IMG/VR virus record: IMGVR_UViG_3300032212_000038
Location: 1 to 42,312 of that record
Length of the DNA stretch: 42,312 bases
Source: a virus
Taxonomy: Duplodnaviria > Caudoviricetes
Direction: 5' to 3' (one strand)
Shown: positions 21,255 through 36,872 of the stretch, one piece after another
Position numbering within the stretch: the first letter of the stretch is position 1
Layout: each line of letters opens with the position of its first letter
The notes under the pieces: generated by a model
Seen by the model: only the letters and a program-made list of their open reading frames with translations
What the model was told of the DNA's origin: nothing
Database searches by the model: none
Position numbers and translations under genes: made by a program

Positions 21255-22531
21255 TAAATGCCCGCTATACTATCCAGTGGTTGCCATGTATCTTCTTCAA
21301 ACTCATCCATATATATCACCGAGGAGAGTTGATCTATGTACGCTAGTGCGTCCGGTAAGTCGTCATGAGACATAGGATTAGGGAAATCTAGTAATTGATC
21401 TGTAAGATTCTTAATCCAAGGCTCTCCCTCTTTGAAGAAGATCCTGCCGTGTTCAAAACGGCCTTGCAGTGCCCATGTAATTCTTTCTACTTTCTTCTTA
21501 CCGCCGTGAGTAAGTGTCTCAATGTGGAAGAAAACTCCCAACCTCCGCATTTGATCATGCAGGTAATCATTCATAGCATTCTTGAGAGACCCGCCTTCAA
21601 TACCTACGGCCCTAGGTCTGTACTTCTGAGCAGCTCTTACTATCTGTAAGCTTGCTTCCCGTGTACCCCATCTACCATGTATGATATCGTGTACAAACCA
21701 ACCAGAAGGGGACACTTCTACTACGGCTATGGCCATCTCATCTAGTCTAGATACGGCAGATTTAACCATCCCTGTACCAGCTCCGAACCCTGCGGGGTCA
21801 ACAGCTATATATATCTCTCCGGGTTCCGGGCTCTCAGCACACTCTTGGAACATAGAAGCTTTAAAGCTACCACCGCCTCCAGAGGAGAAAGAGGCCTCAA
21901 ACTCTTGTCTAAAGGCGTCTGCTGACATACGTGATCTTGCCTTCTCAATCTCTTTAGTGGAAATCATGGGATTATCCATACTGTTAAAAGAGAAAGACTC
22001 CCATTCTTCTGTATTATGGCCTTGTAACCATAGCTCATAGAAGTGGTTCTTACCGTCAGGGGTTCCTATAAACAGAGCATCCCCCTCTACGTCAGCTAAG
22101 GTAGGACTTATAATAAGATCCCATACCTCAGGCTTCATGAATGCATATTCGTCCATCACTACATAAGAGATAGCCACACCTCGTAAGGTATCAGGCCTAT
22201 CAGATCCCTTAATCTGGATCGTTCTGCCATTAATTAGTGTTAATGTTGCAGTGTTCTCATGCGCTTTCTTTATTACTTTCTGCCCTATATCCTTGAGCAG
22301 GTTCCACATAATGTCCTTACCTTGTTGGAAAGTAGGAGCTACGTACCAGACCTCTTTACCTTTAAGAGGGTACCCAAAACGATTCTCATTCTCTAGACCT
22401 TTTAGGAGTAGTGTTACTGCAGAGAGGTAACTCTTACCTCCTCGTCTCCCTGCTGCACATACTTTAAATCTAGCTTTTGAATTTAGAATCTCTAGTTGCT
22501 TCTCATGGAGGCTAAAGTCTAAATGTGACAT
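21254..22531 (-). CDS. terL: Terminase large subunit
   Basis: AGRRGGKS Walker A, VVMDE Walker B, FIGTP, FRQEFEASF, AVDPAG, HDDLPDAL. Confidence 0.95.
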   Translation of the reverse strand: MSHLDFSLHEKQLEILNSKARFKVCAAGRRGGKSYLSAVTLLLKGLENENRFGYPLKGKEVWYVAPTFQQGKDIMWNLLKDIGQKVIKKAHENTATLTLINGRTIQIKGSDRPDTLRGVAISYVVMDEYAFMKPEVWDLIISPTLADVEGDALFIGTPDGKNHFYELWLQGHNTEEWESFSFNSMDNPMISTKEIEKARSRMSADAFRQEFEASFSSGGGGSFKASMFQECAESPEPGEIYIAVDPAGFGAGTGMVKSAVSRLDEMAIAVVEVSPSGWFVHDIIHGRWGTREASLQIVRAAQKYRPRAVGIEGGSLKNAMNDYLHDQMRRLGVFFHIETLTHGGKKKVERITWALQGRFEHGRIFFKEGEPWIKNLTDQLLDFPNPMSHDDLPDALAYIDQLSSVIYMDEFEEDTWQPLDSIAGI

Positions 22532-22540
22532 CGTGTACCC

Positions 22541-22705
22541 TTATTGAACCTTACCTGTACTAGAGCCTGTTATCCTAGCAGCCATACCGTCACGGGCTTT
22601 ACCCTTCTCGATAGTGCATACCTTAGGAGGGGCTTGCTTAGAGGGCTTAGCCCCTATCTGTACCATTTTAGAGGCCTTCTGCCCCTTTGAGCTAATATCT
22701 GCCAT
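22541..22705 (-). CDS. Small basic hypothetical protein (probable start 22705)
   Basis: MADISSKGQKASK..., K-rich; starts right after the 424 aa gene stop. Confidence 0.5.
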   Translation of the reverse strand: MADISSKGQKASKMVQIGAKPSKQAPPKVCTIEKGKARDGMAARITGSSTGKVQ

Positions 22706-22706
22706 C

Positions 22707-23981
22707 TTAATGCCTTGTATTAAACTTATGATTAGGTGTGATATATCCGATCTGCTTAGTCTTATTCTTATCAAACCATGATAATCCAGTAGATGCAGCT
22801 ACCTGATAAGTAACCGTCCAAGACGCGGATCTAACGCCTGTAGCTGCCCTGATAACCTGACATTCAACCGTCTGATCCACTACTGGCATTGAGTCAAGTA
22901 TCCACTCAGAGTCAGCATTAGTTGTGAATGTAATAGCACTAGGCGTTGTTGCGTCAGGATATTCAAGCTGGTCTGTCGTTACAGGTGCTGGCGTACCTTC
23001 ATAGCCATAGGCTAAGTATTCATCGCCGCTGTACACGGGAGAGACTAAATCAATATAGCTTCGACCACTCTCAGGGGTAAATGGCACGTTAGCGCTAGTG
23101 TCGCTGCTGGCATCATCTGCCGTTACCGTGAAGCCATAACCTGTTGCGTCATACTGTAAATTAGTTCCGCTCGTAACCGTCACATCAATACTGGTGTCAG
23201 ACCAGCTTACAATAGTACAAGCCTCTGTACTAAAATCAACGCCGCCAGTACCCTGAGAAGCACCGAATCCCGTACCTGTGATTGTAACAGTCTCACCACG
23301 CGCTACGGTTGCGGGCACTGTTGAAATACTTGCACCAGAAGTCGCCTCTGCAATCTCGAAGGCTAGACCGTACACCTGGCGATACCCGAATGAAGCGCTT
23401 TCAAGTGTCTGCGTTGTATCTTCTGACGCTTGGTAGAAACCAGCTAAACTGAAAGTAGGGCTTGCATCTTCCACTAATGAATCAAGTATTAACGTGTAAC
23501 CGGCTGGCGTAGTGAATGAACCTGTATTAAAAACCATACCGCCAAAATTCAATGCCATGTTTGTAGCACTAGCAAAAGCAGACATCGTTGTAAATGCGGC
23601 GGGTGAGCTTGGGTTATTTATGTTGATTGCTTGAGTTTGTACAAATACTGTATCGACTGTGCTGGCCGTAGATGCACCAGCTAACTGCATGACATTGGCT
23701 TGCCATGTCTGGGAGGCTGCATAATTAACAGTGACCTGACCAGAGCCGGGACTTGCACCTACACGCCATGCGTAAACATGAAGCACACCAGATTCGGCAA
23801 TCTTTGTGAAAGTGGGCGAGCCTGACCAGCTGCCTGTAACACTTGACGGGTCTGTTACTGATGCAGATAGGATAGAGACAACAATTACATCGTTTTCAGC
23901 AGGGGTAAAAGCATCGCCCATCGCCGCCGATGTAGAATAACTGGCATCGCCTGAGCCGCGTTCTGTTACAGTGAATGCCAT
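22707..23981 (-). CDS. Virion-associated beta-rich protein with an IPT/TIG (Ig-like) domain
   Basis: GETVTITGTGFGASQGTG.V......IVSWSDTSI.VTV IPT/TIG signature; S/T/A-rich. Confidence 0.75.
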   Translation of the reverse strand: MAFTVTERGSGDASYSTSAAMGDAFTPAENDVIVVSILSASVTDPSSVTGSWSGSPTFTKIAESGVLHVYAWRVGASPGSGQVTVNYAASQTWQANVMQLAGASTASTVDTVFVQTQAININNPSSPAAFTTMSAFASATNMALNFGGMVFNTGSFTTPAGYTLILDSLVEDASPTFSLAGFYQASEDTTQTLESASFGYRQVYGLAFEIAEATSGASISTVPATVARGETVTITGTGFGASQGTGGVDFSTEACTIVSWSDTSIDVTVTSGTNLQYDATGYGFTVTADDASSDTSANVPFTPESGRSYIDLVSPVYSGDEYLAYGYEGTPAPVTTDQLEYPDATTPSAITFTTNADSEWILDSMPVVDQTVECQVIRAATGVRSASWTVTYQVAASTGLSWFDKNKTKQIGYITPNHKFNTRH

Positions 23982-24484
23982 AAGGCATCATCCTCTTGGT
24001 AATATTCTTTCAAATCATTATAACGATAATCGTTAGTAGGTAAATGTGTAAAACTGTTAGCCCAAGGTAATCTGCCCGGATTATGTTTAGACCAGTTCTC
24101 TCTCACACTTTCTGGCGTGAACTTATAAACATGAGTGTATATATGATCACCGTCTAATTTAACTTGATCGCTTTGTGGTAGCCAGTGTCTAGCCTCTGGA
24201 TGGTCATCATTAGTCAAAATAAAATCCACGAAAGACTCATAATCATCTGGAATCTCTTTAGAATTAGCATTATTCCTGCCTTCTACCTTCAACCAGTGAT
24301 ACATAGAGTAAGCTGATACAACCCGCTCACTCCATTCACGTATCCATAACACCCTTACAGGTACATCAATGATCTGTTCGGAGGTGTAAATATCACCATT
24401 ACGAATAGCATTTCTGAATGAAGTTGATCCGACCTTCGGTAGACAGCTTGTTGCAAATGTTCGTTCTTTATTACAAGTCCACAT
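23966..24484 (-). CDS. Sulfotransferase (Sulfotransfer_2 / carbohydrate sulfotransferase-like)
   Basis: LPKVGSTSF (5'-PSB loop), IREWSERVVSAY (3'-PB motif), F.DFI and HWLPQ. Confidence 0.75.
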   Translation of the reverse strand: MWTCNKERTFATSCLPKVGSTSFRNAIRNGDIYTSEQIIDVPVRVLWIREWSERVVSAYSMYHWLKVEGRNNANSKEIPDDYESFVDFILTNDDHPEARHWLPQSDQVKLDGDHIYTHVYKFTPESVRENWSKHNPGRLPWANSFTHLPTNDYRYNDLKEYYQEDDALWHSL

Positions 24485-26034
24485 TATGCACCGGCCGAAT
24501 ACGAACCTGTCAGCCCGATAACTTCCGAGCCTGTTTCATACGGCCCTGCATCAGTTGCACCGCCAGGCATTAAATTAATTGCCGCCGAACCTGTTTTATT
24601 TGTCCATGTTGTTCCGGGAGTGTCGAATAAATCAGCTAATGCATCAGTGACAGAGTTTGTGTCAGGGTTATCAACCTGCAATGATACGGTACTAGAGCCT
24701 GCAATAGTCTCAGCCTGCCATGCTGCGAGATTTGCGATGTTATCCTCTGTTGTATCGAATATGTCAAGGTTTACAAAATAAGTGCCGCTGTTTATTTGCA
24801 GCACATTGTAATCAGACTCAGTAAGCTGACCTACAACACCCGCTTGATAGACATTGTAATCACCTTCAATACTTAGAAAACTATTACAGTTAGCTGCAAT
24901 GTTTCCGTAGACTTCAATATCGTTCATAGCGGCTGCATGAATTGCGGTTGATACCGTACCCGCACCAGCGCCATATAAAACATTGTGCTCAATGCGTAGT
25001 CGAGTACCTTGATTGTTGCCTTCTCGCAACTCAGGACATGCTATGCAGCTATCGAGGCCATCGCCGCCTCCGACACTTCGAGTTGTTTGTAATACATTAT
25101 GGTGAATGTATTGTAATCCAGAATTAGGTGTGCCGATTGTCTGTGTTTGCATAAAGAATGGAATACCCGCTGTAATATCACAGTGGCGAACTTCCCAGCC
25201 ATCAACCACGCTTGACCCGTCAGTGTCATACCAAAAAGATTTCTGGAATAATCCCCCTGTATGTGCAGACAACTCGCTGTTTTCTAACAGGCAATTAGAT
25301 GATCCATAAGTCTGTATTGCATGTACGTCTGTCACCGAACCAACAACCTTGACATCTTTTACGATAGTATCTTCTACACCAAATAAACGAAGTGCTGCCG
25401 TGTTCTCACCGGGCGTTCGTATTGTAGGTGTGTCGAAGTAGCAATTTTCAATCCTTATACCCACAGATTTTGATGTTATATCTATTTGATGGCTTGCGCT
25501 ATCAGGTGCATTGATGTGACCCTGCTCTGCATTTGTAAAGCGCAGCCCGTAAAACTGCCAATAGTCTTGAAAGTTTAAATCAAAGTTACCGTAAGTACCT
25601 GCCGAATCAATAGTCACACTACCCTCATCACCAGACAAGGTTCTGAATGTGATAGGCTCAGCCAAAGTGCCAGAAGTACCGGCCTGCAAGTTTGCAAAAC
25701 CAGAATCATTCATTACATTTGCACCATTAACTGTATATGTCGTACCAGTACCAACGGAATCGACAAGGTTAATAGTATCGCCCGCCGTCACTGTATCAAT
25801 GGCTTTTTGTGGCGTTAAAAACGCGCCGCCTGCGCTATTAGTCGTGCCTGCATTACCATCATTACCGTCTGCCCTAACATAATACTGTGTGCCAGAGCCA
25901 ACACTAAAGGCAGGCGTAGCGCCAAACCATGTAAAACCAGCAGGACTGAACACGCCGAGCGGATCAAGACCACGCACCTTACCGTCAGTGTTATTGGCTG
26001 TGTAAGTTGACAAATCTACTGTGAAGTTAGGCAT
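24484..26034 (-). CDS. Right-handed beta-helix (pectin lyase-like) protein, putative depolymerase/adhesin
   Basis: YYV..DGNDGNAGT....FLTPQKAID....GDTI start; repeated IENC/IHHN/IEHN/VYGN rungs; SDYN. Confidence 0.8.
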   Translation of the reverse strand: MPNFTVDLSTYTANNTDGKVRGLDPLGVFSPAGFTWFGATPAFSVGSGTQYYVRADGNDGNAGTTNSAGGAFLTPQKAIDTVTAGDTINLVDSVGTGTTYTVNGANVMNDSGFANLQAGTSGTLAEPITFRTLSGDEGSVTIDSAGTYGNFDLNFQDYWQFYGLRFTNAEQGHINAPDSASHQIDITSKSVGIRIENCYFDTPTIRTPGENTAALRLFGVEDTIVKDVKVVGSVTDVHAIQTYGSSNCLLENSELSAHTGGLFQKSFWYDTDGSSVVDGWEVRHCDITAGIPFFMQTQTIGTPNSGLQYIHHNVLQTTRSVGGGDGLDSCIACPELREGNNQGTRLRIEHNVLYGAGAGTVSTAIHAAAMNDIEVYGNIAANCNSFLSIEGDYNVYQAGVVGQLTESDYNVLQINSGTYFVNLDIFDTTEDNIANLAAWQAETIAGSSTVSLQVDNPDTNSVTDALADLFDTPGTTWTNKTGSAAINLMPGGATDAGPYETGSEVIGLTGSYSAGA

Positions 26035-26045
26035 CTATAGTAGTC

Positions 26046-26375
26046 TTATTTATAGAAAGTTGCAGTTACAATACAGTTTGCTGTAGCTGATACTACAGAG
26101 ATAGTAGCTACGCCCTTAATATTACGTGCTGTAGGGTTCATCTCAGAAGCTGTACCGTCAGTGACATCTGCACTAGGGACAGCAGCAGTGCCTGTGTATC
26201 GAGCATAGAAGTCATTATCCGCTGAGAATACTACAAAATTAGCTCCTGCGGGGACTGTGAAAGATTCTGCTGTACCACCTGTACCTAGGATACGTGTATA
26301 CACTGAGTCATCTGGGGAAGGGAGGTGTAGGCTATGTTGACCGTTCTTATCTGATTCAAATATTAGACTTTTCAT
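26046..26375 (-). CDS. Small beta-rich hypothetical (possible virion) protein
   Basis: 109 aa, T/A/V-rich; TAATG coupling to the upstream gene. Confidence 0.65.
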   Translation of the reverse strand: MKSLIFESDKNGQHSLHLPSPDDSVYTRILGTGGTAESFTVPAGANFVVFSADNDFYARYTGTAAVPSADVTDGTASEMNPTARNIKGVATISVVSATANCIVTATFYK

Positions 26376-26719
26376 TAATCTTCTACCGTATAGTCGCCAT
26401 CCACTACTTCTTCATCTCTATCTGATAAGTGTGGGTTAGCTGTTAGTTTGGCTATATTGATAGTGATACCACCATCACCTAGTTTATCTGTATTAAACTC
26501 TACTGCTTTAGTGACAGGGATGAGCCTATCTAGAACCATCTTAGCTGCAGTGAGATCTCCCTCAATTGCCTTATCTATAACTGTCTGAGCTATAGCATTA
26601 AGGTTATCTAGCATGAGGTTAGTAGTCTTCTCACGCATTGCATCCTGCAATAAAGTCTTCTTATTCTTAGACCCTACTGGACGACCTCTTTTCTTCTTGG
26701 TAGTAGGGAGGTCAGACAC
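26375..26719 (-). CDS. terS: Probable terminase small subunit
   Basis: KKKRGRPVGSKNK AT-hook-like motif; VIDKAIEGDLTAAKMVLDRLIP; near the start of the structural arm. Confidence 0.65.
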   Translation of the reverse strand: MSDLPTTKKKRGRPVGSKNKKTLLQDAMREKTTNLMLDNLNAIAQTVIDKAIEGDLTAAKMVLDRLIPVTKAVEFNTDKLGDGGITINIAKLTANPHLSDRDEEVVDGDYTVED

Positions 26720-26867
26720 TACTTAAGATACCTTCAGCTTCTTTCTTAAATGAAGCATAGTCACCGTCTGCTACTCTAGCGTACTCTAGTTTTTTACCAG
26801 ATGAGTAGGTATAGGCAACATAGACGTCACCATAGCCTTCTCTATCTTCAATGCAGAATTCTATCAT
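26712..26867 (-). CDS. Hypothetical protein, 51 aa; not in the ORF track
   Basis: Hand translation MIEFCIEDREGYGDVYVAYTYSSGKKLEYARVADGDYASFKKEAEGILSSV; overlaps both neighbours. Confidence 0.65.
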   Translation of the reverse strand: MIEFCIEDREGYGDVYVAYTYSSGKKLEYARVADGDYASFKKEAEGILSSV

Positions 26868-26989
26868 TTAATACCTGATTTACGCATAGCGTCCTTAATC
26901 TTCTGTTTACGGCCCTTAAGCTTCTTACCAGCCTTAGCTGCCATTCCTGTACCTAGAGAAGAGACAGGTAAACGTCCTACTTTTTTCAT
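26864..26989 (-). CDS. Very basic 41 aa peptide, first gene of the structural arm; not in the ORF track
   Basis: MKKVGRLPVSSLGTGMAAKAGKKLKGRKQKIKDAMRKSGIK; GAGGTGG RBS; ATGA overlap. Confidence 0.65.
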   Translation of the reverse strand: MKKVGRLPVSSLGTGMAAKAGKKLKGRKQKIKDAMRKSGIK

Positions 26990-27125
26990 ACACCACCTCG
27001 TATATTATTTATATCTACCTATACTAGGCAGGTTCTATTATATTCTTTTTAATATTATTTATATTATAATAACCCCTACTTCCCTACCTACTCCAAATCT
27101 CTATAAAAATAAATAATATACTCTC

Positions 27126-27173
27126 TTAGACAACAAAAAAAGCAAAAAGTTCAATTTATTTTTAAATTATTTT
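27126..27173 (-). promoter_or_regulatory. sigmaE/AlgU-type promoter P1 with UP element, facing the structural arm
   Basis: Minus strand AAAATAATTTAAAAATAAATT-GAACTT-N16-TCTAA. Confidence 0.75.
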
Positions 27174-27300
27174 GCTTCACCTACGGTTAAGACTACCAGA
27201 AGGAACAGAAGGACAGTAGGTAAGAGGGTTTGGATGGGTAGGAATAACAGATTTCTTTAAGCATTAAATAATAACAGAGATCTTTCAAGATTATCAATGA

Positions 27301-27313
27301 AATCAATAAGTTA
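27301..27313 (+). promoter_or_regulatory. IHF consensus site
   Basis: AATCAATAAGTTA matches WATCAANNNNTTR. Confidence 0.6.
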
Positions 27314-27457
27314 CCTACCCTATCTATATAGTCTATATAGTCTTATTTAATACTATTTATTCCTATCCCCCTCCTTTTTATATTCCAAAATCACGTTTTT
27401 TGTGGCTGAGGGTCATAATCAATAAAATCAAAGAAATCCTAGGCCCTCCCCCCTATC

Positions 27458-27476
27458 GATAATGATTCTCATTCGC
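27458..27476. promoter_or_regulatory. Fur box-like site
   Basis: GATAATGATTCTCATTCGC; 15/19 identity to GATAATGATAATCATTATC. Confidence 0.6.
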
Positions 27477-27491
27477 ATTTATCGCAGAATA

Positions 27492-27507
27492 TGGCACAAT
27501 ACTTGCA
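27492..27507 (+). promoter_or_regulatory. sigma54 -24/-12 element
   Basis: TGGCAC-AATAC-TTGCA, a perfect consensus match. Confidence 0.7.
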
Positions 27508-27513
27508 TAATAT

Positions 27514-27529
27514 AGCAAAAACCATGCCA
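27514..27529 (-). promoter_or_regulatory. sigma54 -24/-12 element (leftward)
   Basis: Minus strand TGGCAT-GGTTT-TTGCT. Confidence 0.65.
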
Positions 27530-27599
27530 GAGAGAGTGTGATTGTCACCATCAATGATACCCCAGACTATAATAGATTCTCTCAATCAATACCCCTGAG

Positions 27600-27615
27600 T
27601 GGCATATACATTGCA
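27600..27615 (+). promoter_or_regulatory. sigma54 -24/-12 element
   Basis: TGGCAT-ATACA-TTGCA. Confidence 0.65.
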
Positions 27616-27621
27616 TAAAGT

Positions 27622-27804
27622 GTCAGATTCTTTTACACCTCAAACCCTGATTCCCTCTATATATCGCTTGAATCGATAGTAATAAACGTCAGGTTATTTT
27701 ACACAATGAACGGTACTAAAACACTGACGGGTGGCTTAAGTTATTGATTCTATTGTAAGACATACGTCTGACTAGGCGATTCTAGGTGTCAGAATACTTT
27801 ACAC
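27622..27804. repeat. Three copies of GTCAG-N6-TTACAC (27622-27638, 27688-27704, 27788-27804), candidate enhancer (UAS) sites
   Basis: GTCAGattcttTTACAC, GTCAGgttattTTACAC, GTCAGaatactTTACAC. Confidence 0.7.
27737..27749 (-). promoter_or_regulatory. IHF consensus site
   Basis: Minus strand AATCAATAACTTA. Confidence 0.6.
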
Positions 27805-27867
27805 TATTGGCTTATTTCTCCCTCTGGCATGGTATTATCAGGCTCTCTGAATAAATAATTCTATATA

Positions 27868-27903
27868 AATCAATGACTTACAAAAACTGGCACGGCGAAT
27901 GCA
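27868..27903 (+). promoter_or_regulatory. IHF site plus sigma54 promoter, predicted start about 27914, facing the early arm
   Basis: AATCAATGACTTA (27868-27880) then TGGCAC-GGCGA-ATGCA (27888-27903). Confidence 0.7.
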
Positions 27904-27911
27904 TTATCTTT

Positions 27912-28395
27912 CGGCAAGACCAGCGGGTTTGTCGTGGCTTTCATAGCTGCCCCTATGCGCTGGCTAGGTTATGGGCTTTTAGTACCTTCTATGGGTATTA
28001 TTAACCACGTGTGACATACGGCTCTATTTACGGGTGTATGGTGTAGCGTGGAGGTGCCAGCATAACTGAAACGGGTAGCGGGTACAGTGGCGCACCTGTA
28101 AGCTAATCTGGCTTAGCGGAACTGATAGGCATAACATAAGTCCTAGGGCAGCCATGCTGTCAGGTGTATTGTTCAATACATCTCTCAATAATTACATACC
28201 ACTAGCAGAGAAGGGATATAGGTTTATCTTAATAGGCGATTATCCGAACACAGCGAATATAACGGCTTACGTGTTCCGATTACCTATTGTTTATTACTAT
28301 TCGCTTATATCCTTATGTGACAGGTAGGGTTTTCCCTTTTCTGTGAATGTGATAACTAGTAGGTATTCAATAGGGAGTATCTACCAATTATCACA
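27912..28395 (+). ncRNA. Candidate large structured RNA or structured early leader
   Basis: No convincing ORF; many nested helices with G-U pairs (see findings); begins at the predicted sigma54 start site. Confidence 0.6.
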
Positions 28396-28417
28396 AACAA
28401 AAAGTGAGGTATTAATC

Positions 28418-28897
28418 ATGCAACAAACAACTACTAAAAACTTCAAATCTCAACTGAATGGTATTATCAAATCAGCTAAGACTCAACGGGATAACGTGCA
28501 AGCTATCATTGTATTCGGCCTGAATCACTATAAAGATCACGGTGACGCAAGTTATCTATCACAGGTTTTAAGTGCCGCAATCGGTGTCAAAAGCCTTCCT
28601 ACGGTAACCTTGAAGGAATACATTAAGGCTCATGCGAATCTGTTATGGAAGAAAGGTAAGGATGGTAAATTCCAGTTTAAGAAAGACGGCACTGACGTCA
28701 AGGTTACTATGCCAACTGTTTCATGGTATGAGTGGGACGGTGGTAAGCATAACAAGGTAACCGTTGATATGGATGTTATGGCGCAAACTAAGGCGCTGCT
28801 TAAGCGTATCCAATCTGGCCTTAAGGATCATAAGGTTAAGGATGAACAAGCGGCTAAGAACGTAGAAGCGGCACTCAAGGTAGTACTGGAGGCTTAA
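28418..28897 (+). CDS. First early protein, hypothetical (probable start 28418, MQQTTTK)
   Basis: GTGAGG RBS before ATG 28418; the upstream in-frame part lies in a long hairpin. Confidence 0.8.
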   Translation: MQQTTTKNFKSQLNGIIKSAKTQRDNVQAIIVFGLNHYKDHGDASYLSQVLSAAIGVKSLPTVTLKEYIKAHANLLWKKGKDGKFQFKKDGTDVKVTMPTVSWYEWDGGKHNKVTVDMDVMAQTKALLKRIQSGLKDHKVKDEQAAKNVEAALKVVLEA

Positions 28898-29130
28898 TGT
28901 CTTCCTTAAAGGCAGGCGATAGGGTAGTTGCTATAGGTGGAACTGTCGCGGATATATTCTATCTGGAGAGTAAAGAGGAGGCTAAACGTCTCCGTTACCT
29001 CTATCCAGACGACTGTCATGTATCTCGTGGCCCTGACCATATTGGTAAGCACGGTCATAAGCTGGTACGTTCTCGTCTACAGCCTAAAGGTACTATGAAT
29101 AGTAGTAGCGAGGTGACAAGTCATGGGTAA
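28897..29130 (+). CDS. Early hypothetical protein
   Basis: GGAGG RBS; TAATG coupling. Confidence 0.65.
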   Translation: MSSLKAGDRVVAIGGTVADIFYLESKEEAKRLRYLYPDDCHVSRGPDHIGKHGHKLVRSRLQPKGTMNSSSEVTSHG

Positions 29131-29230
29131 GTTAAGCTTTACAGACTTCTCAAAAGTAGTAATCGGTACTATTGTATTTACTATAGTAGTAGTTTACCTA
29201 ACAGCCCTAATCATGGGCTATCCTATCTAG
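29123..29230 (+). CDS. 35 aa single-TM peptide; not in the ORF track
   Basis: MGKLSFTDFSKVVIGTIVFTIVVVYLTALIMGYPI; GAGGTG RBS; fills the gap. Confidence 0.6.
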   Translation: MGKLSFTDFSKVVIGTIVFTIVVVYLTALIMGYPI

Positions 29231-29239
29231 GAGAATAAA

Positions 29240-29446
29240 ATGGGTACTCTATACCAGACACATGTCAAAGGTACAGATGATTATGGTAATACCTTTACTT
29301 ATACGAAAGGTTCTCTTACTAGTAGTCGTACAACGGCTGTTAATCGTCTTAAAAATAATAGACTTAAGGGGTATGTTCAGGATATTAACTCGAAAAAGGT
29401 AATATTCCAGAACATGCGTAATGATCTACAAGCGGTGGGGTTATAG
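29240..29446 (+). CDS. Early hypothetical protein
   Basis: AGGAG RBS; 68 aa. Confidence 0.7.
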   Translation: MGTLYQTHVKGTDDYGNTFTYTKGSLTSSRTTAVNRLKNNRLKGYVQDINSKKVIFQNMRNDLQAVGL

Positions 29447-29448
29447 TT

Positions 29449-29574
29449 ATGGTTGAAGAACTGAAAGCAATACTCTCCTTATTAGGAGATATGTCAGAGA
29501 TAGGCGGTTGGGTACTTGCAGGGTTTATACTCTTCAAGGTAACCTTGGAGCAGCTTTTCTTAAGGCTGCTGTAG
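29449..29574 (+). CDS. 41 aa hydrophobic peptide; not in the ORF track
   Basis: MVEELKAILSLLGDMSEIGGWVLAGFILFKVTLEQLFLRLL; fills the gap. Confidence 0.55.
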   Translation: MVEELKAILSLLGDMSEIGGWVLAGFILFKVTLEQLFLRLL

Positions 29575-29608
29575 AAGAAAAAATTGAAAGAGAGAGGGGT
29601 TATTAATT

Positions 29609-29821
29609 ATGAGAGGCTTCAAAGCAAAAACATTACGTCGGTTTGCACGTAGTCGTACAGTGGGTAAAAAGGACGTAGAGTACCGTGAGAAGATCACCCC
29701 TAAGACGGTTACAATGTTTAACACAGACGGCACTACCCGTCAGACAGTCGTGCATAAAAGCACTCGTTATATGGTTCACGACTGTACCCGTAAATATTAC
29801 AAACTGTTAAAAGCTTTATAG
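29609..29821 (+). CDS. Basic early hypothetical protein
   Basis: GAGGGG RBS; K/R-rich, 70 aa. Confidence 0.7.
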   Translation: MRGFKAKTLRRFARSRTVGKKDVEYREKITPKTVTMFNTDGTTRQTVVHKSTRYMVHDCTRKYYKLLKAL

Positions 29822-29831
29822 GAGAGCGATC

Positions 29832-30614
29832 ATGGGAGTAAAGTATGATATTGTAAGTACTGGAGCAGGCGGTACAGAGCATGTACTGCCGAGAGCAGGT
29901 GTCTGTTTTTCCTACCTTAAGTACCAATATGGTAGTGAGCTTGACCAGTTACAGATGAGTTTTAAAGAGATCAGGATGCACTTTATCCGTAACCTTAAAC
30001 GGCCTGAGATTAAAACTATCATGTTAAGGGTGTTAGAGGCGTTCGGTATGGATGAATTTGTTACCTTCAACGAGGAAGGACTAGCAGTAGTATCTGACCG
30101 TCGGCCTAAGGTTGTATTTAAGACTTTATCGATGATGCGTGTATTTGATGTCTACCAATGCGACAGGCTCTTGGTTGTTGAGAGATTGGAAGGTATGGGT
30201 TTTGATACTAAGGTTGCATTCCTCCTAGCTCATTATTTACGTATTAAGAAGGACGCCACACTCGATCGTTCTTTTGACCTCAGTACTTGCGGAGAACATG
30301 GGTGGATAGCTGACGCAAGAGACATGACTATTGCAGGTATACTAGGTGTCGCTTTACATGCTAAGGATGTTTTAACGAAGACAGACCCATGTAGTACTAT
30401 GTCTTTTTCCTATATAGGGGTCGAATCCCTATTCAGAGCGTTTAATGGTACGGGGCGTAAACTACACTGTATTTTAGCGGAGGCTTCCGTCCAATCTCAC
30501 GATGATTGGGGGCCTAGGTATGTTAAAGATAAGGATCTATTCCCTATCCTTTACTCTGTGCAAGAGAAGTATGACGAAGAGGTTAAGCGCCTTAAGGGGG
30601 TAGCCGGTGAGTAA
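29832..30614 (+). CDS. Hypothetical protein
   Basis: AGGAG RBS; 260 aa; precedes the amidoligase cluster. Confidence 0.75.
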   Translation: MGVKYDIVSTGAGGTEHVLPRAGVCFSYLKYQYGSELDQLQMSFKEIRMHFIRNLKRPEIKTIMLRVLEAFGMDEFVTFNEEGLAVVSDRRPKVVFKTLSMMRVFDVYQCDRLLVVERLEGMGFDTKVAFLLAHYLRIKKDATLDRSFDLSTCGEHGWIADARDMTIAGILGVALHAKDVLTKTDPCSTMSFSYIGVESLFRAFNGTGRKLHCILAEASVQSHDDWGPRYVKDKDLFPILYSVQEKYDEEVKRLKGVAGE

Positions 30615-31284
30615 GAGAGACTATACGTTCTTAGTACTTGGAGGTAACCCATACTACCAGCCTTTCTTAGAGTTAGGGTCTGTGGTAGGAGGTTACCCTA
30701 ATATGACTAAGGCTGACTGTATTGTATTCACAGGGGGTAGCGATGTTGACCCTTCTCTATATGGTGAGAGTAAGACAACTAAGGTCTTAGTCACAGATTT
30801 AGACAGAGATCATAAAGAGATGGCTGTTTTTAAATACGCAGTCTCTCATGGTATCCCTATGATTGGTATCTGTCGAGGCGCTCAGTTCTTAAACGTGATG
30901 AACGGTGGTAAGTTAGTACAACATGCTAACGGTCATAGCGTTGACCATAAGATCAGGATACCTACCAGTGTAGATTACCCTGTTAAGGAGTTCGTGGTAA
31001 CATCTACGCATCATCAACTGATAGTGCCTAATATAGAGCGTGGTCATCAACTCTTAGGATATACAGAGGGCATCGCTACTCATTTAGAGGGTGTCCCTTT
31101 CAAGGAGTATACTAAATACAGTAAGAAATACAGTGCTGGTGAGACTATAGCTAAGGAGGCAGAAGTTCTGTGGTATGAGACTACAGGTTCTTTATGTGTC
31201 CAGTATCACCCCGAACAGATGAAGAAGGGTGAGGACGGCTATCAGTACTTTAAACACCTAGTAGAGGAGTATGTAATGTTATGA
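30607..31284 (+). CDS. Class I glutamine amidotransferase-like / peptidase C26 (gamma-glutamyl hydrolase, PuuD-like)
   Basis: FTGGSDVDPSLYG, GICRGAQFLNV (catalytic Cys), STHHQ, VQYHPE. Confidence 0.9.
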   Translation: MSKRDYTFLVLGGNPYYQPFLELGSVVGGYPNMTKADCIVFTGGSDVDPSLYGESKTTKVLVTDLDRDHKEMAVFKYAVSHGIPMIGICRGAQFLNVMNGGKLVQHANGHSVDHKIRIPTSVDYPVKEFVVTSTHHQLIVPNIERGHQLLGYTEGIATHLEGVPFKEYTKYSKKYSAGETIAKEAEVLWYETTGSLCVQYHPEQMKKGEDGYQYFKHLVEEYVML

Positions 31285-31466
31285 AATCTACATATATAGT
31301 ATGCTCTTTCTTAGCGCAGTTTACACTATTAGTACTGGCTGTATTCAGTCCTATATATATCACACCCGGTTGGTATGTATGGACTGTTATATCTTTAATA
31401 CTATTAGCTCTCTCCGGCGGTTCATTGAACTATCAGGTGAGCTTATGGGAACTTGACGAGGAGTAA
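31281..31466 (+). CDS. Small two-TM membrane protein
   Basis: Two hydrophobic segments; ATGA overlap; GAGGAG RBS. Confidence 0.65.
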   Translation: MKSTYIVCSFLAQFTLLVLAVFSPIYITPGWYVWTVISLILLALSGGSLNYQVSLWELDEE

Positions 31467-32247
31467 CTTTATGCTTGGTACAGATACAGAGGTATTTTTA
31501 AAGAATAAAGCAGGGGACTATATCTCCTCTATTGGTCTTATTGGTGGCTCTAAGGATAAGCCTTTAGAGGTTGAGTGTGGTAACTTACAAGAGGATAATG
31601 TATTAGCTGAGTTTGCCATACCTCCTGCTAGTAATAAGGAAGAGTTTATAGGATATATTAATAAGACTTTCGGCATCCTTGAGGCTAAGGTTAAGGAGTA
31701 CGATCTTGAGATTGAAATTAAACCTTCTGCCGTATTCCCTTATGATCAGCTTGAGCACCCTTTGGCTCAGGAGTTTGGATGTGACCCTGACTATAATGCC
31801 TACACTTTAGATGTGAATGAGTCGCCTAAGCATGAGAATGTAGGCGCCCTACGTTCTTGTGGAGGCCACGTACATGTATCCTCCGAGGCTATCGCTAAGG
31901 ATGAGAATAGTCGAGCAGAGTTCGTACGTATCCTTGACTTAGTACTAGGTGTACCATCTGTGGTCATGGACACAGATAAAGAACGTCGTAAGTTATACGG
32001 TAAGGCAGGTGCATATCGTAATAAAGATTACGGTATCGAGTATCGTACCTTATCTAACTTCTGGATTCAAACACAAGAGCATATGTCTTGGTTGTGGGAT
32101 CAAGTCAAGAAAGCTGAGAAGATGTTTGATGAAGGGTTCCGTATTAACTTTGACATAGGCAGTCGTGTTATCGAGTGTATTAATAACGGAGACACTGATA
32201 CCGCTGATGCATTGATACATGAATTTAATCTGGAGGTAGTGTCATGA
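31453..32247 (+). CDS. phiEco32-like COOH-NH2 ligase type 2
   Basis: LGTDTEVFL, QEDNVLAEF, FGCDPDYNAY, GGHVH, RRKLYGKAG, YGIEYRTLSNFW. Confidence 0.88.
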   Translation: MTRSNFMLGTDTEVFLKNKAGDYISSIGLIGGSKDKPLEVECGNLQEDNVLAEFAIPPASNKEEFIGYINKTFGILEAKVKEYDLEIEIKPSAVFPYDQLEHPLAQEFGCDPDYNAYTLDVNESPKHENVGALRSCGGHVHVSSEAIAKDENSRAEFVRILDLVLGVPSVVMDTDKERRKLYGKAGAYRNKDYGIEYRTLSNFWIQTQEHMSWLWDQVKKAEKMFDEGFRINFDIGSRVIECINNGDTDTADALIHEFNLEVVS

Positions 32248-32903
32248 ATTATGGGGAGTATACTATTGACGACCTTAATAGGTACTTACGTAACGGTTTT
32301 GCATTCCTAGATAATGAGCCTGTACTTATACGGAGGGTACGTCAGGGTAGAGACAGTAGAGATAAGGTGGTACCTAAAGTAGGTTACCATATGAAGATGA
32401 GTACTAGTGACGATTGGAACACGGACGACGAACACTCTATACCGCTGGACGACTTGAATATATGTAGTGCTGACATAGGCTGCTACAACTATAAAGGTGG
32501 CGTGGTTTATGTTTCACGTGGAGCTGAGAGACAGTGGAACTTTGCGATAAATAACTCATCCTATTCTGTTACTCAATGTAATAGAGACAACCACCGATCC
32601 CGACTAAACCCTCATATGAGTAGCCCGTCCCTACTTAAGGCTATTATCTCTCCAGAATACTTCGGTATTGATACTGCTATTAATAAGTTAAGAACAGGCA
32701 GCCGTATGACTGTGGCACTTGATAAGGACTTCTGGATTGGTGTAGACCGCTACTCAGAGGATATTATCCTTGGTTATCAGTCAGGTAGAGTCATAGGTTA
32801 TATTAATAGTGATGACATTGTTACAGTCTTTACAGGTTTCGAGTTCCTAAGTGAAAAAGTAGCTAAACTAACACCTATAGGGGGTTTTGAAGATGCAGCT
32901 TAA
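32244..32903 (+). CDS. Hypothetical protein within the amidoligase cluster
   Basis: GGAGG RBS; ATGA overlap; 219 aa. Confidence 0.75.
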   Translation: MNYGEYTIDDLNRYLRNGFAFLDNEPVLIRRVRQGRDSRDKVVPKVGYHMKMSTSDDWNTDDEHSIPLDDLNICSADIGCYNYKGGVVYVSRGAERQWNFAINNSSYSVTQCNRDNHRSRLNPHMSSPSLLKAIISPEYFGIDTAINKLRTGSRMTVALDKDFWIGVDRYSEDIILGYQSGRVIGYINSDDIVTVFTGFEFLSEKVAKLTPIGGFEDAA

Positions 32904-34044
32904 TAAAATAACTGGTATCTCTCCAGATAACAGAACATTCCTACCACACTCTTGTTTTGTATTACCTTATACATTAATAGGTGTAGAGGTAGAGACAGAG
33001 GGTGTGTACTATGACCGCCTAAGTAATCCTACTTACTGGGATGTTAAAGAGGACGGATCATTACGTAGTGGTGCTGAGTTCGTACTAGCTAATCCGCTAG
33101 TGGGTAAAGACTTACACGATTCTCTTGAAATACTGGACGCTTTCTGTTCCAATAACCCTGAGATACACTATACTGTTCGTACCTCAGTCCATGTACATTT
33201 AGATGTTCGTGACTTAGAAGCAGAGCAACTGATGAACCTTCTCGGACTGTACTTGCTCTTTGAGAAAGCTATCTATCGTTATCATAACCATAAGTACAAC
33301 AGAGAGAATAATATCTATTGCTTACCTTTCTTCAATACCAGTAGGCATATTAATGACCTTTCTGTGCTGTCTTATCTAGGAGACCCGTCGATTAGCCAAC
33401 GTGATTTATCTACTACTCTCCGCCACTCACTGTCTCGATTAAATAAATATTATGGCCTGAACGTAGCCTCTTTGTTCCGCTTCGGCTCTTTAGAGTTTAG
33501 ACACATGGAGGGTACTCATAATAAAAATGAGATTATTGAGTGGGTTAATATTATTATGTCTCTTAAGAAGTATGCTTGTTCCTTACAAGGCAACCCTTAC
33601 GAGATGCTACTAGGTGTAAGTAATTCTGGTTACACAACACTTCTCTCTAAGGTATTCTCCGCTGACCTGATAAGTAAGCTGTTCGATTACGGGGATGCAG
33701 AAGAGGACATATATGCTGGTATGCAGCTTTTCCAAGATATTATCCACGGAAATAAGCTCACTACTAGTGCAAGTGTATGGCGCGGAAGGGTAGATCAGAA
33801 GAACCCTGAGTATAAAGAGTCTTCATTATTCAAGAAGAGTGCTAAAGGTAATAAGAAGACTGTAGGTAAGAGTAGAGTTAAGAAGGCTATCAGACGTCGC
33901 CGCCGACTAGATACGCTTAACCCTCCAGAGGATACAGCAGTACCTAGTCCTACTGCTGTTGCTTGGGAAGGCACAGCAGTAGGTACTGATTCAGCTTATA
34001 CAGATCTACAACGAGTACTTAACAATATAACAGGAGAAGATTAA
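32887..34044 (+). CDS. Putative amidoligase (glutamine synthetase/GCS-like fold)
   Basis: IGVEVETE, DGSLR...EFV, SVHVHLD, YGLN...GSLEFRHMEGT. Confidence 0.85.
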   Translation: MKMQLNKITGISPDNRTFLPHSCFVLPYTLIGVEVETEGVYYDRLSNPTYWDVKEDGSLRSGAEFVLANPLVGKDLHDSLEILDAFCSNNPEIHYTVRTSVHVHLDVRDLEAEQLMNLLGLYLLFEKAIYRYHNHKYNRENNIYCLPFFNTSRHINDLSVLSYLGDPSISQRDLSTTLRHSLSRLNKYYGLNVASLFRFGSLEFRHMEGTHNKNEIIEWVNIIMSLKKYACSLQGNPYEMLLGVSNSGYTTLLSKVFSADLISKLFDYGDAEEDIYAGMQLFQDIIHGNKLTTSASVWRGRVDQKNPEYKESSLFKKSAKGNKKTVGKSRVKKAIRRRRRLDTLNPPEDTAVPSPTAVAWEGTAVGTDSAYTDLQRVLNNITGED

Positions 34045-34045
34045 A

Positions 34046-35542
34046 ATGTGTGGAATCGTAGGAGTTATCAGTGACAGTGCAGGTATACAGTCACAGGATA
34101 AAAAGAAGTTTTTAATACAGGCATTACAGGTGGATTCTTTACGAGGAGAGGACTCTACTGGCCTCTTCACAGTTAATGATAAGGGCCACTGTGATATGTT
34201 TAAATCTAACATGACTGGCTGGGATTTTGTACAACATGCGAAAACTCAGAAGATCTTATCCTATGTATACGATAAGCGAGTAATGATCGGTCATAATCGA
34301 TGGGCTACACGTGGGGCTATCAACGCTACCAATGCCCACCCTTTCCATCACGGTAAGATTGTCGGGGTACATAACGGATCTCTTAACAATCATAGAAACT
34401 TACTACCTGACGGTGAGATGTTCGATGTAGATAGTGATGCGGTATTCCATTCGATTAATGAGATCGGTGTCGAGGAGACTGTGACCAAAATGAATGGGGC
34501 TTATGCTATTATCTATTTTGATACAGAAGCTAAGACCCTTAATCTGTTTCGTAATGAAGAACGTCCACTCTTTACAGCTATTGTAACTCATGCAAACAAG
34601 AACGACAACACTATGCTAGTAGCTAGTGAGGCTGGTATGATTGAGTGGTTAGCGGAACGGAACGGACTAACTATCGACACACCTGTATTATTAAAACCTC
34701 ATACATTACTAAGTATTAGTACGGATAAACTTACTGACTTTACTGTATCTGATCTAGGTAAGTATGAGCCTCCTAAGAGTGAGAAAAGTACTGTACGGAA
34801 TTTTGGTGACTACCGTAATACGGACTCTCATGAAACACCTAGTCGTAATAAGAGGGTATCTAAACGCTCAAAAAAGATACTAAACAAGGTAGGTCTAAAG
34901 ATCGGAGACACGTTAGAACTCTATAATACTGGTGCAGCGACCTATAATCATAAAGATTCATTCGGTTATATCGAAGGATCTATGACAGTAGATCCTTGGT
35001 GTGACATCGTAGTTCATAATGTACCTAGGAGTATCATTGAGACAGTTGTTAGAGAAGACATGCCTCTTATCTTCGGTAAGATTAAGATTGCAGTAGACCG
35101 GTCGAACTACCCTATCATCCACTTAGATCCTAAAACTCTTAGCTATAACCTTGATGGAAAGAACATACCACTTAGTGAGCCAAGTAGTAAAGAGGAAGTC
35201 AAGAAAGAGACTAAGAAAGTACTGACTACGGAGGACGTAAGAAGTGCGGTAAAGGATGTACTTCGTGATGTCAATAAGAAGAAGGACAGCACGGAGGGAA
35301 CCCCAGAAAAAAAGCCCATACTGTGTCTCCCGGCTGGGAAGAACAATTCAAATTCCTGCAAAGGCCCGAGAGGCTTCATTAGTCTATACGATTTTCAGAA
35401 GTATGTTCAAGGTGGGTGTGATAACTGCGGTGCTAATATTGACCATAATGATCATGATAATATACGTTGGACTAATAACGGCTTACCTCTTTGCCCTTCT
35501 TGTTCAGAAGAGTTACAAGACTGGGGTTGCGCAGGCTGTTAA
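34046..35542 (+). CDS. Class II (Ntn) glutamine amidotransferase with C-terminal Zn ribbon
   Basis: MCGIVG start, RG.DSTG, GHNRWATRG, NAHPF, HNG, DVDSD; C-terminal CDNC...CPSC. Confidence 0.9.
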   Translation: MCGIVGVISDSAGIQSQDKKKFLIQALQVDSLRGEDSTGLFTVNDKGHCDMFKSNMTGWDFVQHAKTQKILSYVYDKRVMIGHNRWATRGAINATNAHPFHHGKIVGVHNGSLNNHRNLLPDGEMFDVDSDAVFHSINEIGVEETVTKMNGAYAIIYFDTEAKTLNLFRNEERPLFTAIVTHANKNDNTMLVASEAGMIEWLAERNGLTIDTPVLLKPHTLLSISTDKLTDFTVSDLGKYEPPKSEKSTVRNFGDYRNTDSHETPSRNKRVSKRSKKILNKVGLKIGDTLELYNTGAATYNHKDSFGYIEGSMTVDPWCDIVVHNVPRSIIETVVREDMPLIFGKIKIAVDRSNYPIIHLDPKTLSYNLDGKNIPLSEPSSKEEVKKETKKVLTTEDVRSAVKDVLRDVNKKKDSTEGTPEKKPILCLPAGKNNSNSCKGPRGFISLYDFQKYVQGGCDNCGANIDHNDHDNIRWTNNGLPLCPSCSEELQDWGCAGC

Positions 35543-35560
35543 TAAATAGGAGAAGGCAAT

Positions 35561-36331
35561 ATGAAGTTTAAGATATACCCTTATAAGATAGGGAGTGCTA
35601 GTGCGAAAAGTCTAGCAGACGGACTAGACGCTAAGAGAGTACGTGTTGATGGTCAGTACGTACCCTACCGTAACCATGTAGTAATTAACTGGGGTAGTGG
35701 TAAAGAGCCTGAATGGCTACACCGAAATACTACCCAGTACAGGTACCTCAACCGTCATGAAGAAGTTCTACGTGTTGGTAATAAACTCTTATGTTTTAAG
35801 GACTTACAGAGGTGGGGGGTATCTATTCCCCGCTTCACAGAGAGTAAGGAAGAGGCTTCAAGCTGGGGTGTCCCTATAGTCATACGTCATAAGCTACGAG
35901 GACATAGTGGTGATGGTGCTGTTTATACAGAAGATGTAGCTAACCTACCTGACGCTCCTCTATATGTAGAGTATAAGAAGAAGGTAAGAGAATTTCGAGT
36001 CCATGTATTCCGAGAACGTGTTATAGATGTACAGGAGAAGAAGAAACGAAGAGAGGTAGGGAATGATGAAGTTGATTATAAAATACGTAATAAGTATACC
36101 GGTTGGGTTTATTGTAGGGACATTGATGCTCCTCCTCCAAGTATCAGCGATGATTCCATACTTGCTGTATCATGTTGTGGATTGGATTTCGGAGCAGTTG
36201 ATGTCATATGGAATAATCACGAGCAGAAGTCATATATTCTGGAGATCAATACCGCACCGGGACTTGAAGGACAGACACTAACTAATTATGTAGAAGCTTT
36301 TAAGCAGTATGCAGTAGGAGATGAGTTATGA
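35561..36331 (+). CDS. ATP-grasp peptide ligase (RimK/glutathione synthetase-like)
   Basis: INWG, NKL, REFRVHVF, LDFGAVDVIW, LEINTAPGL. Confidence 0.88.
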   Translation: MKFKIYPYKIGSASAKSLADGLDAKRVRVDGQYVPYRNHVVINWGSGKEPEWLHRNTTQYRYLNRHEEVLRVGNKLLCFKDLQRWGVSIPRFTESKEEASSWGVPIVIRHKLRGHSGDGAVYTEDVANLPDAPLYVEYKKKVREFRVHVFRERVIDVQEKKKRREVGNDEVDYKIRNKYTGWVYCRDIDAPPPSISDDSILAVSCCGLDFGAVDVIWNNHEQKSYILEINTAPGLEGQTLTNYVEAFKQYAVGDEL

Positions 36332-36831
36332 GCTATACGGTTAAGACTATCAGAGTTAAAGAAGGACATAAGGCATGGCCGGTTACAGTAGGTCTTACTA
36401 TTCGTACTACTGGCCATTGTTGTGGTATGTCGGAGGCGTCAAATCTCCGTACTGATAATATTAAGAAGGTTGATAGGAAAGGTTTTGTTACGAGTGAAGG
36501 CTATGTTGAAATAGATGAATCTACTAGGGATAGACTTTATAGTAGAGTAGGGCAGATGATATTAGAACATCTTTATCTTTCTAATACAGGGATACTTCTA
36601 TTTTCTGACGCCGTAGGCTTGGGATGGTCAGGTGCTGGAGGTGGTGGTAATCGTAATGGAGGTATCAGCTTCGCTGGGTTTGCTAAAACCTACGGTATCA
36701 GAACGTCTTCAAAGACTAAAAGCCCTAAGACCGGCCACGTTATAGCTCTTTATTCGGTCACCGAGGATGCTCTTAAAGAGAAGCATAAAGAGTTTTGTAA
36801 GTCTTTGAAAGAAAAGAAGAAAGTAAAATAA
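36328..36831 (+). CDS. Hypothetical protein
   Basis: AGGAG RBS; ATGA-type overlap; HCCG motif. Confidence 0.7.
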   Translation: MSYTVKTIRVKEGHKAWPVTVGLTIRTTGHCCGMSEASNLRTDNIKKVDRKGFVTSEGYVEIDESTRDRLYSRVGQMILEHLYLSNTGILLFSDAVGLGWSGAGGGGNRNGGISFAGFAKTYGIRTSSKTKSPKTGHVIALYSVTEDALKEKHKEFCKSLKEKKKVK

Positions 36832-36872
36832 TTTTAAAATAGGTGGAACTTATGGAAAATAATATTGTCCAA
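36825..36872 (+). promoter_or_regulatory. sigmaE/AlgU-type promoter P2 with UP element, upstream of the primase/polymerase module
   Basis: AAAATAATTTTAAAATAGGTG-GAACTT-N16-TCCAA. Confidence 0.72.

Follow-up and report, generated by a model that had tools for sequence, protein, structure and literature searches.

What starts early transcription in a phage in which no RNA polymerase gene is recognisable? The question is raised by the intergenic region of a viral genome of 42,312 nt (IMG/VR record IMGVR_UViG_3300032212_000038; the whole stretch analysed is referred to below as the window), for which a sequence-only reading had proposed that early transcription is under the control of a host sigma54 activator. 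The comparisons below support this proposal and suggest a candidate: the repeat upstream of the promoter is identifiable, by its sequence, as the 17-nt PEP-CTERM box, the predicted binding site of the host sigma54 activator PrsR.

Divergent arms and the motifs between them

The window is a complete 42-kb podophage genome, with a 231-nt end overlap at 99% (circular) and a CheckV completeness of 100%. Its minus-strand virion genes (7049-26867) diverge from the plus-strand early/replication genes, which run from 28418 and wrap past the genome end, and the gap between the two arms, the 1.55-kb intergenic region 26868-28417, holds the motifs of interest here (Table 1). By analogy with RIO-1 (terminal repeat at 1-121, gene 1 at 1159), this gap likely contains the genome end. 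Members of the Zobellviridae, among them RIO-1, HP1, ICP2 and phages of marine Vibrio, also carry the first early gene, gene 1; only 23 records matched in a search with it, all eight of those examined being Zobellviridae, and the best primase match likewise belongs to this family. Portal and terminase searches gave no close named match, and no DNA-level relatives were found among named phages. From gene comparison, with the shared gene set and layout and the lack of a detectable RNA polymerase, the window is a candidate member of the Zobellviridae.

PHROG and Pfam scans found no RNA polymerase in the genome, and six-frame searches detected neither the sigma54 activator domain PF00158, nor the ECF sigma factor family TIGR02937 (positive control: phage O4), nor the PEP-CTERM domain TIGR02595 (positive control: 13 matches). 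The earlier statement that no activator is recognisable thus stands, and for a circularly complete genome. We considered and rejected a hidden phage sigma factor or activator: ORF 36328 gave no usable Atlas match, and TIGR02937 and PF00158 were negative. The 516-aa beta-helix protein encoded early in the virion arm is likely, on its modelled fold, a polysaccharide-digesting tailspike depolymerase; a single full-length homologue was detected for it (29% identity). Family searches left several large virion proteins without a match. The host was named neither by tail fibre, tailspike and DUF1289 searches nor by a 19.9-kb BLAST against 301 genomes.

Several further features of the gene content deserve mention. 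The beta-helix protein is a candidate depolymerase for a PEP-CTERM-type coat. The plus strand carries a gamma-glutamyl/amidoligase/ATP-grasp operon (30607-37229), as is typical of RIO-1, PA11 and phiEco32-like phages, a DNA polymerase (39827-41803) split into an exonuclease ORF and a polymerase ORF with a 54-aa ORF between them, and, in the replication arm, a small DUF1289 gene (620-787).

Table 1. Predicted and annotated features of the window; positions relative to the transcription start refer to the predicted +1 at 27914.
Feature	Position	Strand	Remarks
Beta-helix protein, 516 aa	24484-26034	-	Pel9A-like fold; Atlas model pTM 0.83, TM 0.59-0.69
SigmaE-type site, GAACTT-N16-TCTAA	27126-27152	-	towards virion arm; general consensus; conserved in L017, G410, G001 and G409
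Third IHF consensus	27301-27313	+	outside the 27492-27914 span; near inferred genome end
Fur-box-like palindrome	27458-27476		general consensus
Upstream sigma54 -24/-12 site, full consensus	27492-27507	+	motif match
Leftward sigma54 -24/-12 site	27514-27529	-	head to head with 27492; box 1 about 100 nt upstream on the minus strand
Upstream sigma54 -24/-12 site	27600-27615	+	no IHF at -20, no upstream box; equivalent in L017
PEP-CTERM box 1, predicted PrsR site	27621-27637	+	centre -285; overlaps predicted start of the 27600 site
PEP-CTERM box 2, predicted PrsR site	27687-27703	+	centre -219
Second IHF consensus	27737-27749	-	between boxes 2 and 3
PEP-CTERM box 3, TGTCAG-N5-TTTACA, predicted PrsR site	27787-27803	+	centre -119; spacer 84 nt
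TGGCAT half site overlapping extended -10 (TGGTATTAT)	27825-27838	+	only sigma70-type candidate towards early arm
IHF consensus	27868-27880	+	first base (W) 20 nt before T of TGGCAC (-46)
Distal sigma54 -24/-12 site, TGGCAC-N5-ATGCA	27888-27903	+	predicted +1 at 27914; kept in closest relative L017
Predicted structured leader, about 500 nt	27914-28417	+	z -3.4; no convincing gene
First early gene (gene 1)	28418-28897	+	homologue of RIO-1 gp1 / ICP2 gp27

The motifs had been reported before, and all of them are where they were claimed to be: four -24/-12 elements matching TGGCAY-N5-WTGCW (27492, 27600 and 27888 on the plus strand, 27514-27529 on the minus strand), two IHF sites within the span (27737-27749 and 27868-27880) and three copies of GTCAG-N6-TTACAC (27622, 27688 and 27788), the last of which lies 110-126 nt before the predicted +1. 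The sigma54, IHF, sigmaE and Fur sites are called as matches to general consensus strings. The -24(GG)/-12(GC) rule is also given in PMC1569441, and GG-N10-GC is found here in a TGGCAC/TTGC context.

Strict -24/-12 matches occur at these four places and nowhere else in the genome, as compared to one match of the reversed pattern, and the 40,762 nt outside 26868-28417 contain no sigma54 match, no box and a single IHF match. Out of 5000 dinucleotide shuffles of the intergenic region, none reached four sigma54 sites (mean 0.005) or three boxes (mean 0.0002), and two reached the three IHF sites observed (mean 0.14), so that the motif density, the point on which a shuffled control had been proposed, is not matched by shuffled sequence. 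The shuffle test is circular for the box, because the pattern was derived from the copies themselves, and independent support for it comes from the bacterial scan described below. The motifs are real and far beyond chance.

Candidates for a sigma70 promoter are scarce. Within the 1150 nt before gene 1 we detected no sigma70-type site of at least 9/12 towards the early arm, and only the extended -10 at 27830, which has no -35 and is not kept at the same place in the closest relative, L017; it could give sigma54-independent starts. The corresponding sigma70-type sites before gene 1 score 11-12/12 in RIO-1, HP1 and KZY1 and 10/12 in ICP2. The repeat itself was considered as a sigma70 -35 (TTTACA) and rejected, as no -10 lies at usable spacing.

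Towards the virion arm, the sigmaE-type site that had been noted is confirmed and recurs in L017, G001, G409 and G410. Further sigmaE-type sites are located at 36846-36872 and 41687-41713 (both plus strand), the former overlapping a gene start and thus possibly reflecting coding sequence. The flanks of the late sigmaE-type site are nearly identical in L017 and G410; G409 has six near-perfect sigmaE-type sites and G001 has three sigmaE-type sites, with no sigma factor gene found in these phages.

A search of 26800-29900 gave no Rfam match at E<=1 and no tRNA, which rules out the leader as a structured RNA family of that collection or a tRNA. A long hairpin directly before gene 1 (28348-28395), possibly an RNase III site, is almost invariant in L017, where the remaining leader has diverged.

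The repeat and the bacterial PEP-CTERM box

The window's repeat, combined with a -24/-12 site 70-100 nt further on, served as the search pattern for a scan of 185,579 prokaryote genomes. At least 120 bacterial loci match (about 150 by estimate), mostly in Gammaproteobacteria, with Colwellia, Glaciecola, Haliea and Photobacterium among the loci listed. Downstream ORFs were called for the first 80 of the at least 120 loci (full flanks), 72 of which gave an ORF: a strict VPEP-type tail is present in 41/72 and a broader PEP-CTERM tail in 55/72, with 17/72 having neither. PrsR scored above the cut-off in all five tested genomes with the pattern and in none of the 14 control genomes.

The text of Haft 2006 (PMC1569441) describes a 17-nt motif that ends in TTTACA, is sometimes repeated, lies in non-coding DNA and precedes a sigma54 site at a distance of 62.8 +/- 10.6 nt (range 32-92); PrsR, the partner of the kinase PrsK, is assigned to it there by phylogenetic profile, that is, as a predicted site. 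The three YGTCAG-N5-TTTACA copies in the window match the profile of 121 bacterial matches (the comparison with the Haft 2006 motif is by text description), are likewise 17-nt motifs ending in TTTACA in non-coding DNA, and the last of them is located 84 nt before the -24/-12 site, inside the published range. While a PEP-CTERM gene follows the motif in bacteria, none does so in the window, where the genome has no TIGR02595 match: the region would work like a PEP-CTERM promoter but is not a PEP-CTERM gene unit. Most bacterial loci have a single box (67/80), as compared to three in the window.

As for the biology behind the box, the available text of PMC9850573 reports RpoN dependence of a PEP-CTERM gene in Aquincola, and PMC9012009 summarises that floc formation in Zoogloea depends on PrsK/PrsR, prsK or prsR mutants being planktonic and shedding polysaccharide in soluble form.

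The same promoter type was recovered blind, by BLAST of positions 22400-42300 of the window (19.9 kb) against 301 Glaciecola-family genomes. Four genomes matched, and the best match covers 27852-27909, the 58-nt IHF and -24/-12 stretch, with 84% identity (E 3e-8) to a bacterial PEP-CTERM promoter whose PEP-CTERM gene adjoins a prsT-like gene. A 119-nt promoter query gave partial weak matches only. PspF was tried as the activator and rejected, the upstream sites of pspA being unlike the window's repeat.

The spacing of the elements is also that of bacterial promoters. The pattern lengths of the listed bacterial matches cluster at 103-108, 115-119 and 123-132, peaks about 11 nt apart with 1/121 falling between them, and the window's length of 116 corresponds to the second peak; the 70-100-nt gap range of the scan left out Haft's main peak near 63 nt. 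With one mismatch allowed, IHF-like matches in the 120 listed bacterial promoters lie 19 to 21 nt upstream of TGGCA in 32/61 cases, with a mode at -20. We presume, from the IHF-DNA structure, that the first consensus base (W) is the bend centre. The offset is -20 in the window, -20 in L017 with the site inverted, and -19 in E. coli pspA. While the enhancer-IHF-sigma54 layout, which had been called complete, is indeed so at 27888, with IHF between enhancer and promoter at the fixed offset, the other three -24/-12 sites lack this host-typical arrangement and have no IHF site within 60 nt. Such extra upstream -24/-12 sites are found in 1/80 bacterial loci. The 27888 site is likely to be the working early promoter.

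The layout in other phages and the relatives that lack the box

A viral scan for the box and a sigma54 site matched 21 contigs, 14 of them in non-coding DNA (longest stop-free frame of 109 aa or less) and seven in longer frames; the reversed-box control gave two matches, both coding. The 14 non-coding matches collapse to 11 distinct records, and a survey of phage genomes, which had been proposed as a check, thus finds the layout in the non-coding control regions of 11 distinct records besides the window. These 11 hold 23 boxes against one for the control, 21 of the 23 at the control region (3/3 in the window). Neither PF00158 nor the PEP-CTERM domain (positive control: 13 matches) is present in the 11 records, six of which are at least 90% complete. 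Independent origins number fewer than 11, because replication genes are common to the window and some of these phages, and L278, L279 and L285 have DNA in common.

In G409, G410 (primase 56% identical to that of the window) and G416 the promoter is directed towards the primase/polymerase strand; G409 and G410 also resemble the window in having a sigmaE-type site directed at the virion arm. L266 and L360, whose terminases are 45% and 41% identical to the window's, respectively, carry two boxes, and their promoter is directed away from the terminase. The exception is G413, the PEP-CTERM-box promoter of which faces packaging genes. IHF sites between boxes are also found in L270, L273 and L280, and extra -24/-12 clusters in G410, G416, L273 and L362. 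A viral scan with shorter gaps (run without a matched control) gave eight more matches: four non-coding with extra boxes, three coding or unclear, and one before a PEP-CTERM-like cargo gene. Phage L358 carries a PEP-CTERM-like gene behind a box. In G412 the PEP-CTERM-box promoter is divergent from an anti-restriction (ArdC-like) gene (L283:1524-2375).

IHF-plus-sigma54 modules are common in viral non-coding DNA generally, with at least 121 matches, many of them coding. Such a module and arrays of four to seven -24/-12 sites are found in non-coding DNA of many unrelated contigs (L070, L088, L107, L120, L133 and others).

In the closest relative, L017, gene 1 is 82% identical, and the sigmaE site, the IHF offset and two -24/-12 sites on the plus strand are retained. 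L017 and G001 both keep the sigma54 site and have no PEP-CTERM box, so the box is not a family-wide need. In L017 three tandem GTGACA-N4-YGTMA palindromes (3050-3104; TGACA-N4-TGTCA type), flanked by Fur-like boxes, replace the boxes, and G001 has yet another triple repeat in their place. Among 401 Gammaproteobacteria genomes, a search for the L017-type repeat matched two, once before an flgB-like gene (flagellar, by eye); its 45 matches in viral contigs are mostly coding. L017-like repeats precede sigma54 sites in L293, L298, L307, L326 and L333. In L001, three copies of TATCCAC-N-ATGGGATA (4795-4885), DnaA-box-like and pseudo-palindromic, lie just upstream of a single sigma54 site and are possibly another enhancer.

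Four other relatives, three of them Vibrio phages and the fourth from an oyster virome, carry no box, and their -24/-12 site stands alone, 690-1050 nt upstream of gene 1; the three Vibrio phages also have CRP-like sites and 9/12 sigma70-type sites there. Lone loose -24/-12 matches are no commoner in the relatives than the reversed control, and RIO-1, HP1 and ICP2 have no -24/-12 site before gene 1. The phage ends in these relatives gather Fur, CRP, LexA and DnaA-like boxes, which a decoy role would also explain. At the left ends of Zobellviridae (L002-L005, L009 and L021), upstream of gene 1, the host-factor boxes differ by phage: by match to general consensus strings, they are CRP-like in the Vibrio phages and ICP2, LexA-like in L004, Fur-like over TTGACA in ICP2 and PdhR-like in L021.

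Alternatives, proposed mechanism and meaning for the phage

From its sequence the region reads as a host-type PEP-CTERM promoter (three boxes, IHF sites and the -24/-12 site at 27888) placed before the first genes, and 27888 is probably a sigma54-dependent early promoter activated by host PrsR with IHF. We weighed this reading against four others. An unlikely one is that the region is a landing pad or decoy, with sites that bind sigma54 holoenzyme, PrsR, IHF and Fur on the first-entering DNA and so titrate factors, shield the end or help pull the DNA in, early RNA being read from the extended -10 at 27830. The presence of four -24/-12 sites that face both ways, with one pair head to head, would suit such a role, as would the host-factor boxes at the relatives' ends, the probable location near the genome end (by analogy with RIO-1) and the extra sites, common in the phage matches and rare in bacterial loci. 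A decoy, however, requires neither helical phasing nor an IHF offset, and box 3 and IHF sit on the bacterial optima; L017 holds the IHF offset despite its flipped site, the extended -10 is neither equipped with a -35 nor kept in L017, and the phased promoter faces replication genes in G409, G410 and G416.

It is quite unlikely that 27888 is a real sigma54 promoter under a different activator, either a host enhancer-binding protein reading a TGT-N11-ACA-like site or an unrecognised phage protein delivered with the virion. Binding of PrsR to the box is a prediction from phylogenetic profiling, L017 combines the same core with a different triple repeat, and several of the large virion proteins lack a family match; set against this are the PEP-CTERM tails in 55 of the 72 ORFs called behind the pattern, the presence of PrsR in 5/5 tested genomes and the negative PF00158 searches in the window and the 11 look-alike phages. 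We consider it very unlikely that a captured host promoter now lies idle as the relic of a lost PEP-CTERM cargo gene: while the 58-nt core resembles a bacterial PEP-CTERM promoter and L358 has a PEP-CTERM-like gene behind its box, the three boxes are intact, neither a PEP-CTERM remnant nor another good early-arm promoter is present, and phages with little DNA in common have the same layout at their control junctions. Chance occurrence in an AT-rich intergenic region, for which the control-level rate of lone loose sigma54 matches in relatives and the many viral IHF-plus-sigma54 matches inside long ORFs could be cited, is already refuted by the shuffles (0/5000 with four strict sites), by phasing and IHF offset as in bacteria, and by the two coding matches of the reversed box as against 14 non-coding ones.

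Activation by PrsR would proceed as follows. Upon DNA entry, host sigma54-RNA polymerase would form a closed complex at 27888, phosphorylated PrsR dimers would occupy the three boxes, IHF at -165 (the 27737-27749 site) would bend boxes 2 and 3 towards each other, and the IHF site at -46 would loop the activator onto the polymerase. The transcript would start near 27914, cross the structured leader and continue into gene 1 and the genes of the replication arm; the sites at 27152 (virion arm) and 41687 would be read next, by host sigmaE. The three -24/-12 sites further upstream would be a phage-specific addition, most likely holding spare sigma54 holoenzyme near the entering end, and the leftward one (27514-27529) could be a minor promoter.

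The start of infection likely depends on host PrsR, because the phage carries a PEP-CTERM-type switch and no polymerase or activator of its own. Infection may plausibly be gated by host state. Tentatively, in a lytic-type phage that attacks a polysaccharide coat, the first transcript is tied to the PrsK/PrsR system by which the host anchors this coat, and the virion genes then to host sigmaE, so that two host envelope regulons would time the cycle. In such a two-regulon scheme it is conceivable, if short of probable, that the genome, with no phage polymerase, sigma factor or activator, stalls in planktonic cells in which PrsR is off. Perhaps, too, relatives swap the enhancer cassette (PEP-CTERM boxes; the other triple palindromes of L017 and G001; sigma70 in RIO-1 and HP1), and would therefore tune which host state licenses infection; that several lineages adopted the PrsR cassette is a suggestion we make with similar reserve. 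Gating on host state, itself a guarded proposal, depends on PrsK ever being off in adsorbable cells. Should the tailspike act on the cell-bound coat that depends on PrsR, the phage may instead simply have taken over a promoter that is always active in every cell it can enter.

How does this compare with known systems? The bacterial PEP-CTERM cis-region (PMC1569441) has the same motif, spacing (84 nt in the window) and non-coding position as far as its description there extends. The window differs from that cis-region in having a phage leader of about 500 nt and early genes in place of a PEP-CTERM gene about 70 nt away, three boxes, three extra -24/-12 sites and no prsKR in cis. E. coli pspA (PspF, IHF, sigma54) has an IHF-like site 19 nt before TGGCAC and the same TATAAATCAA context, but its upstream sites are not the window's repeat. 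The Zobellviridae RIO-1, HP1, ICP2 and O4 share the gene 1 homologue, the gamma-glutamyl/amidoligase operon, the divergent arms and the absence of a detectable RNA polymerase; RIO-1, HP1 and ICP2 differ in that gene 1 is preceded by sigma70-type sites and by no -24/-12 site, and O4 by encoding its own ECF-type sigma factor, which the window does not.

Control of phage promoters by host factors is in itself not new, CtrA-controlled promoters and a sigma54-like promoter in YuA having been reported. YuA (promoter P015; Putzeys et al. 2024, PMC10914365) is a virulent Pseudomonas phage with no RNA polymerase of its own; its one sigma54-like promoter is found among mainly sigma70-like and phage-specific ones, and the available part of that paper names no activator or enhancer. 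'Lytic deferment' by CtrA (Mascolo et al. 2022, PMC9437464) similarly involves sites for one host regulator that are packed densely into a large intergenic region, in phages of several lineages, and the sites are proposed, in the available text, to report a host state linked to the receptor. There, CtrA, a cell-cycle regulator of Alphaproteobacteria, acts in pili- and flagellotropic phages and both binding and regulation were shown, whereas in the window the regulator would be a sigma54 enhancer-binding protein and thus indispensable for initiation, the host surface linked to it is likely the polysaccharide coat, and PrsR binding and activation are predicted from sequence. The window is not a member of the CtrA-monitoring phages and is alike in logic only. 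Prior knowledge covers the bacterial box with its logic, the sigma54-like promoter of YuA and, for CtrA, the monitoring of a host regulator. A literature search (titles and abstract starts; few subscription journals) brought up no description of phage early genes under a PrsR box or under a named host enhancer-binding protein.

Since a sigma54 promoter is silent unless its activator is present, a phage whose only good early promoter is of the PEP-CTERM-box type would cede the decision to start to the floc and biofilm regulator of its host. If this is true, the window would represent a testable case, beyond the CtrA example, of a lytic-type phage that reads host lifestyle at the very first step, and PrsR gating may account for the failure of some phages on planktonic laboratory cultures. 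The box signature offers a DNA-based assignment of uncultured phages to PEP-CTERM hosts, and the three-box phage promoter would be a ready reporter for the long-predicted interaction of PrsR with its box and for the signal sensed by PrsK.
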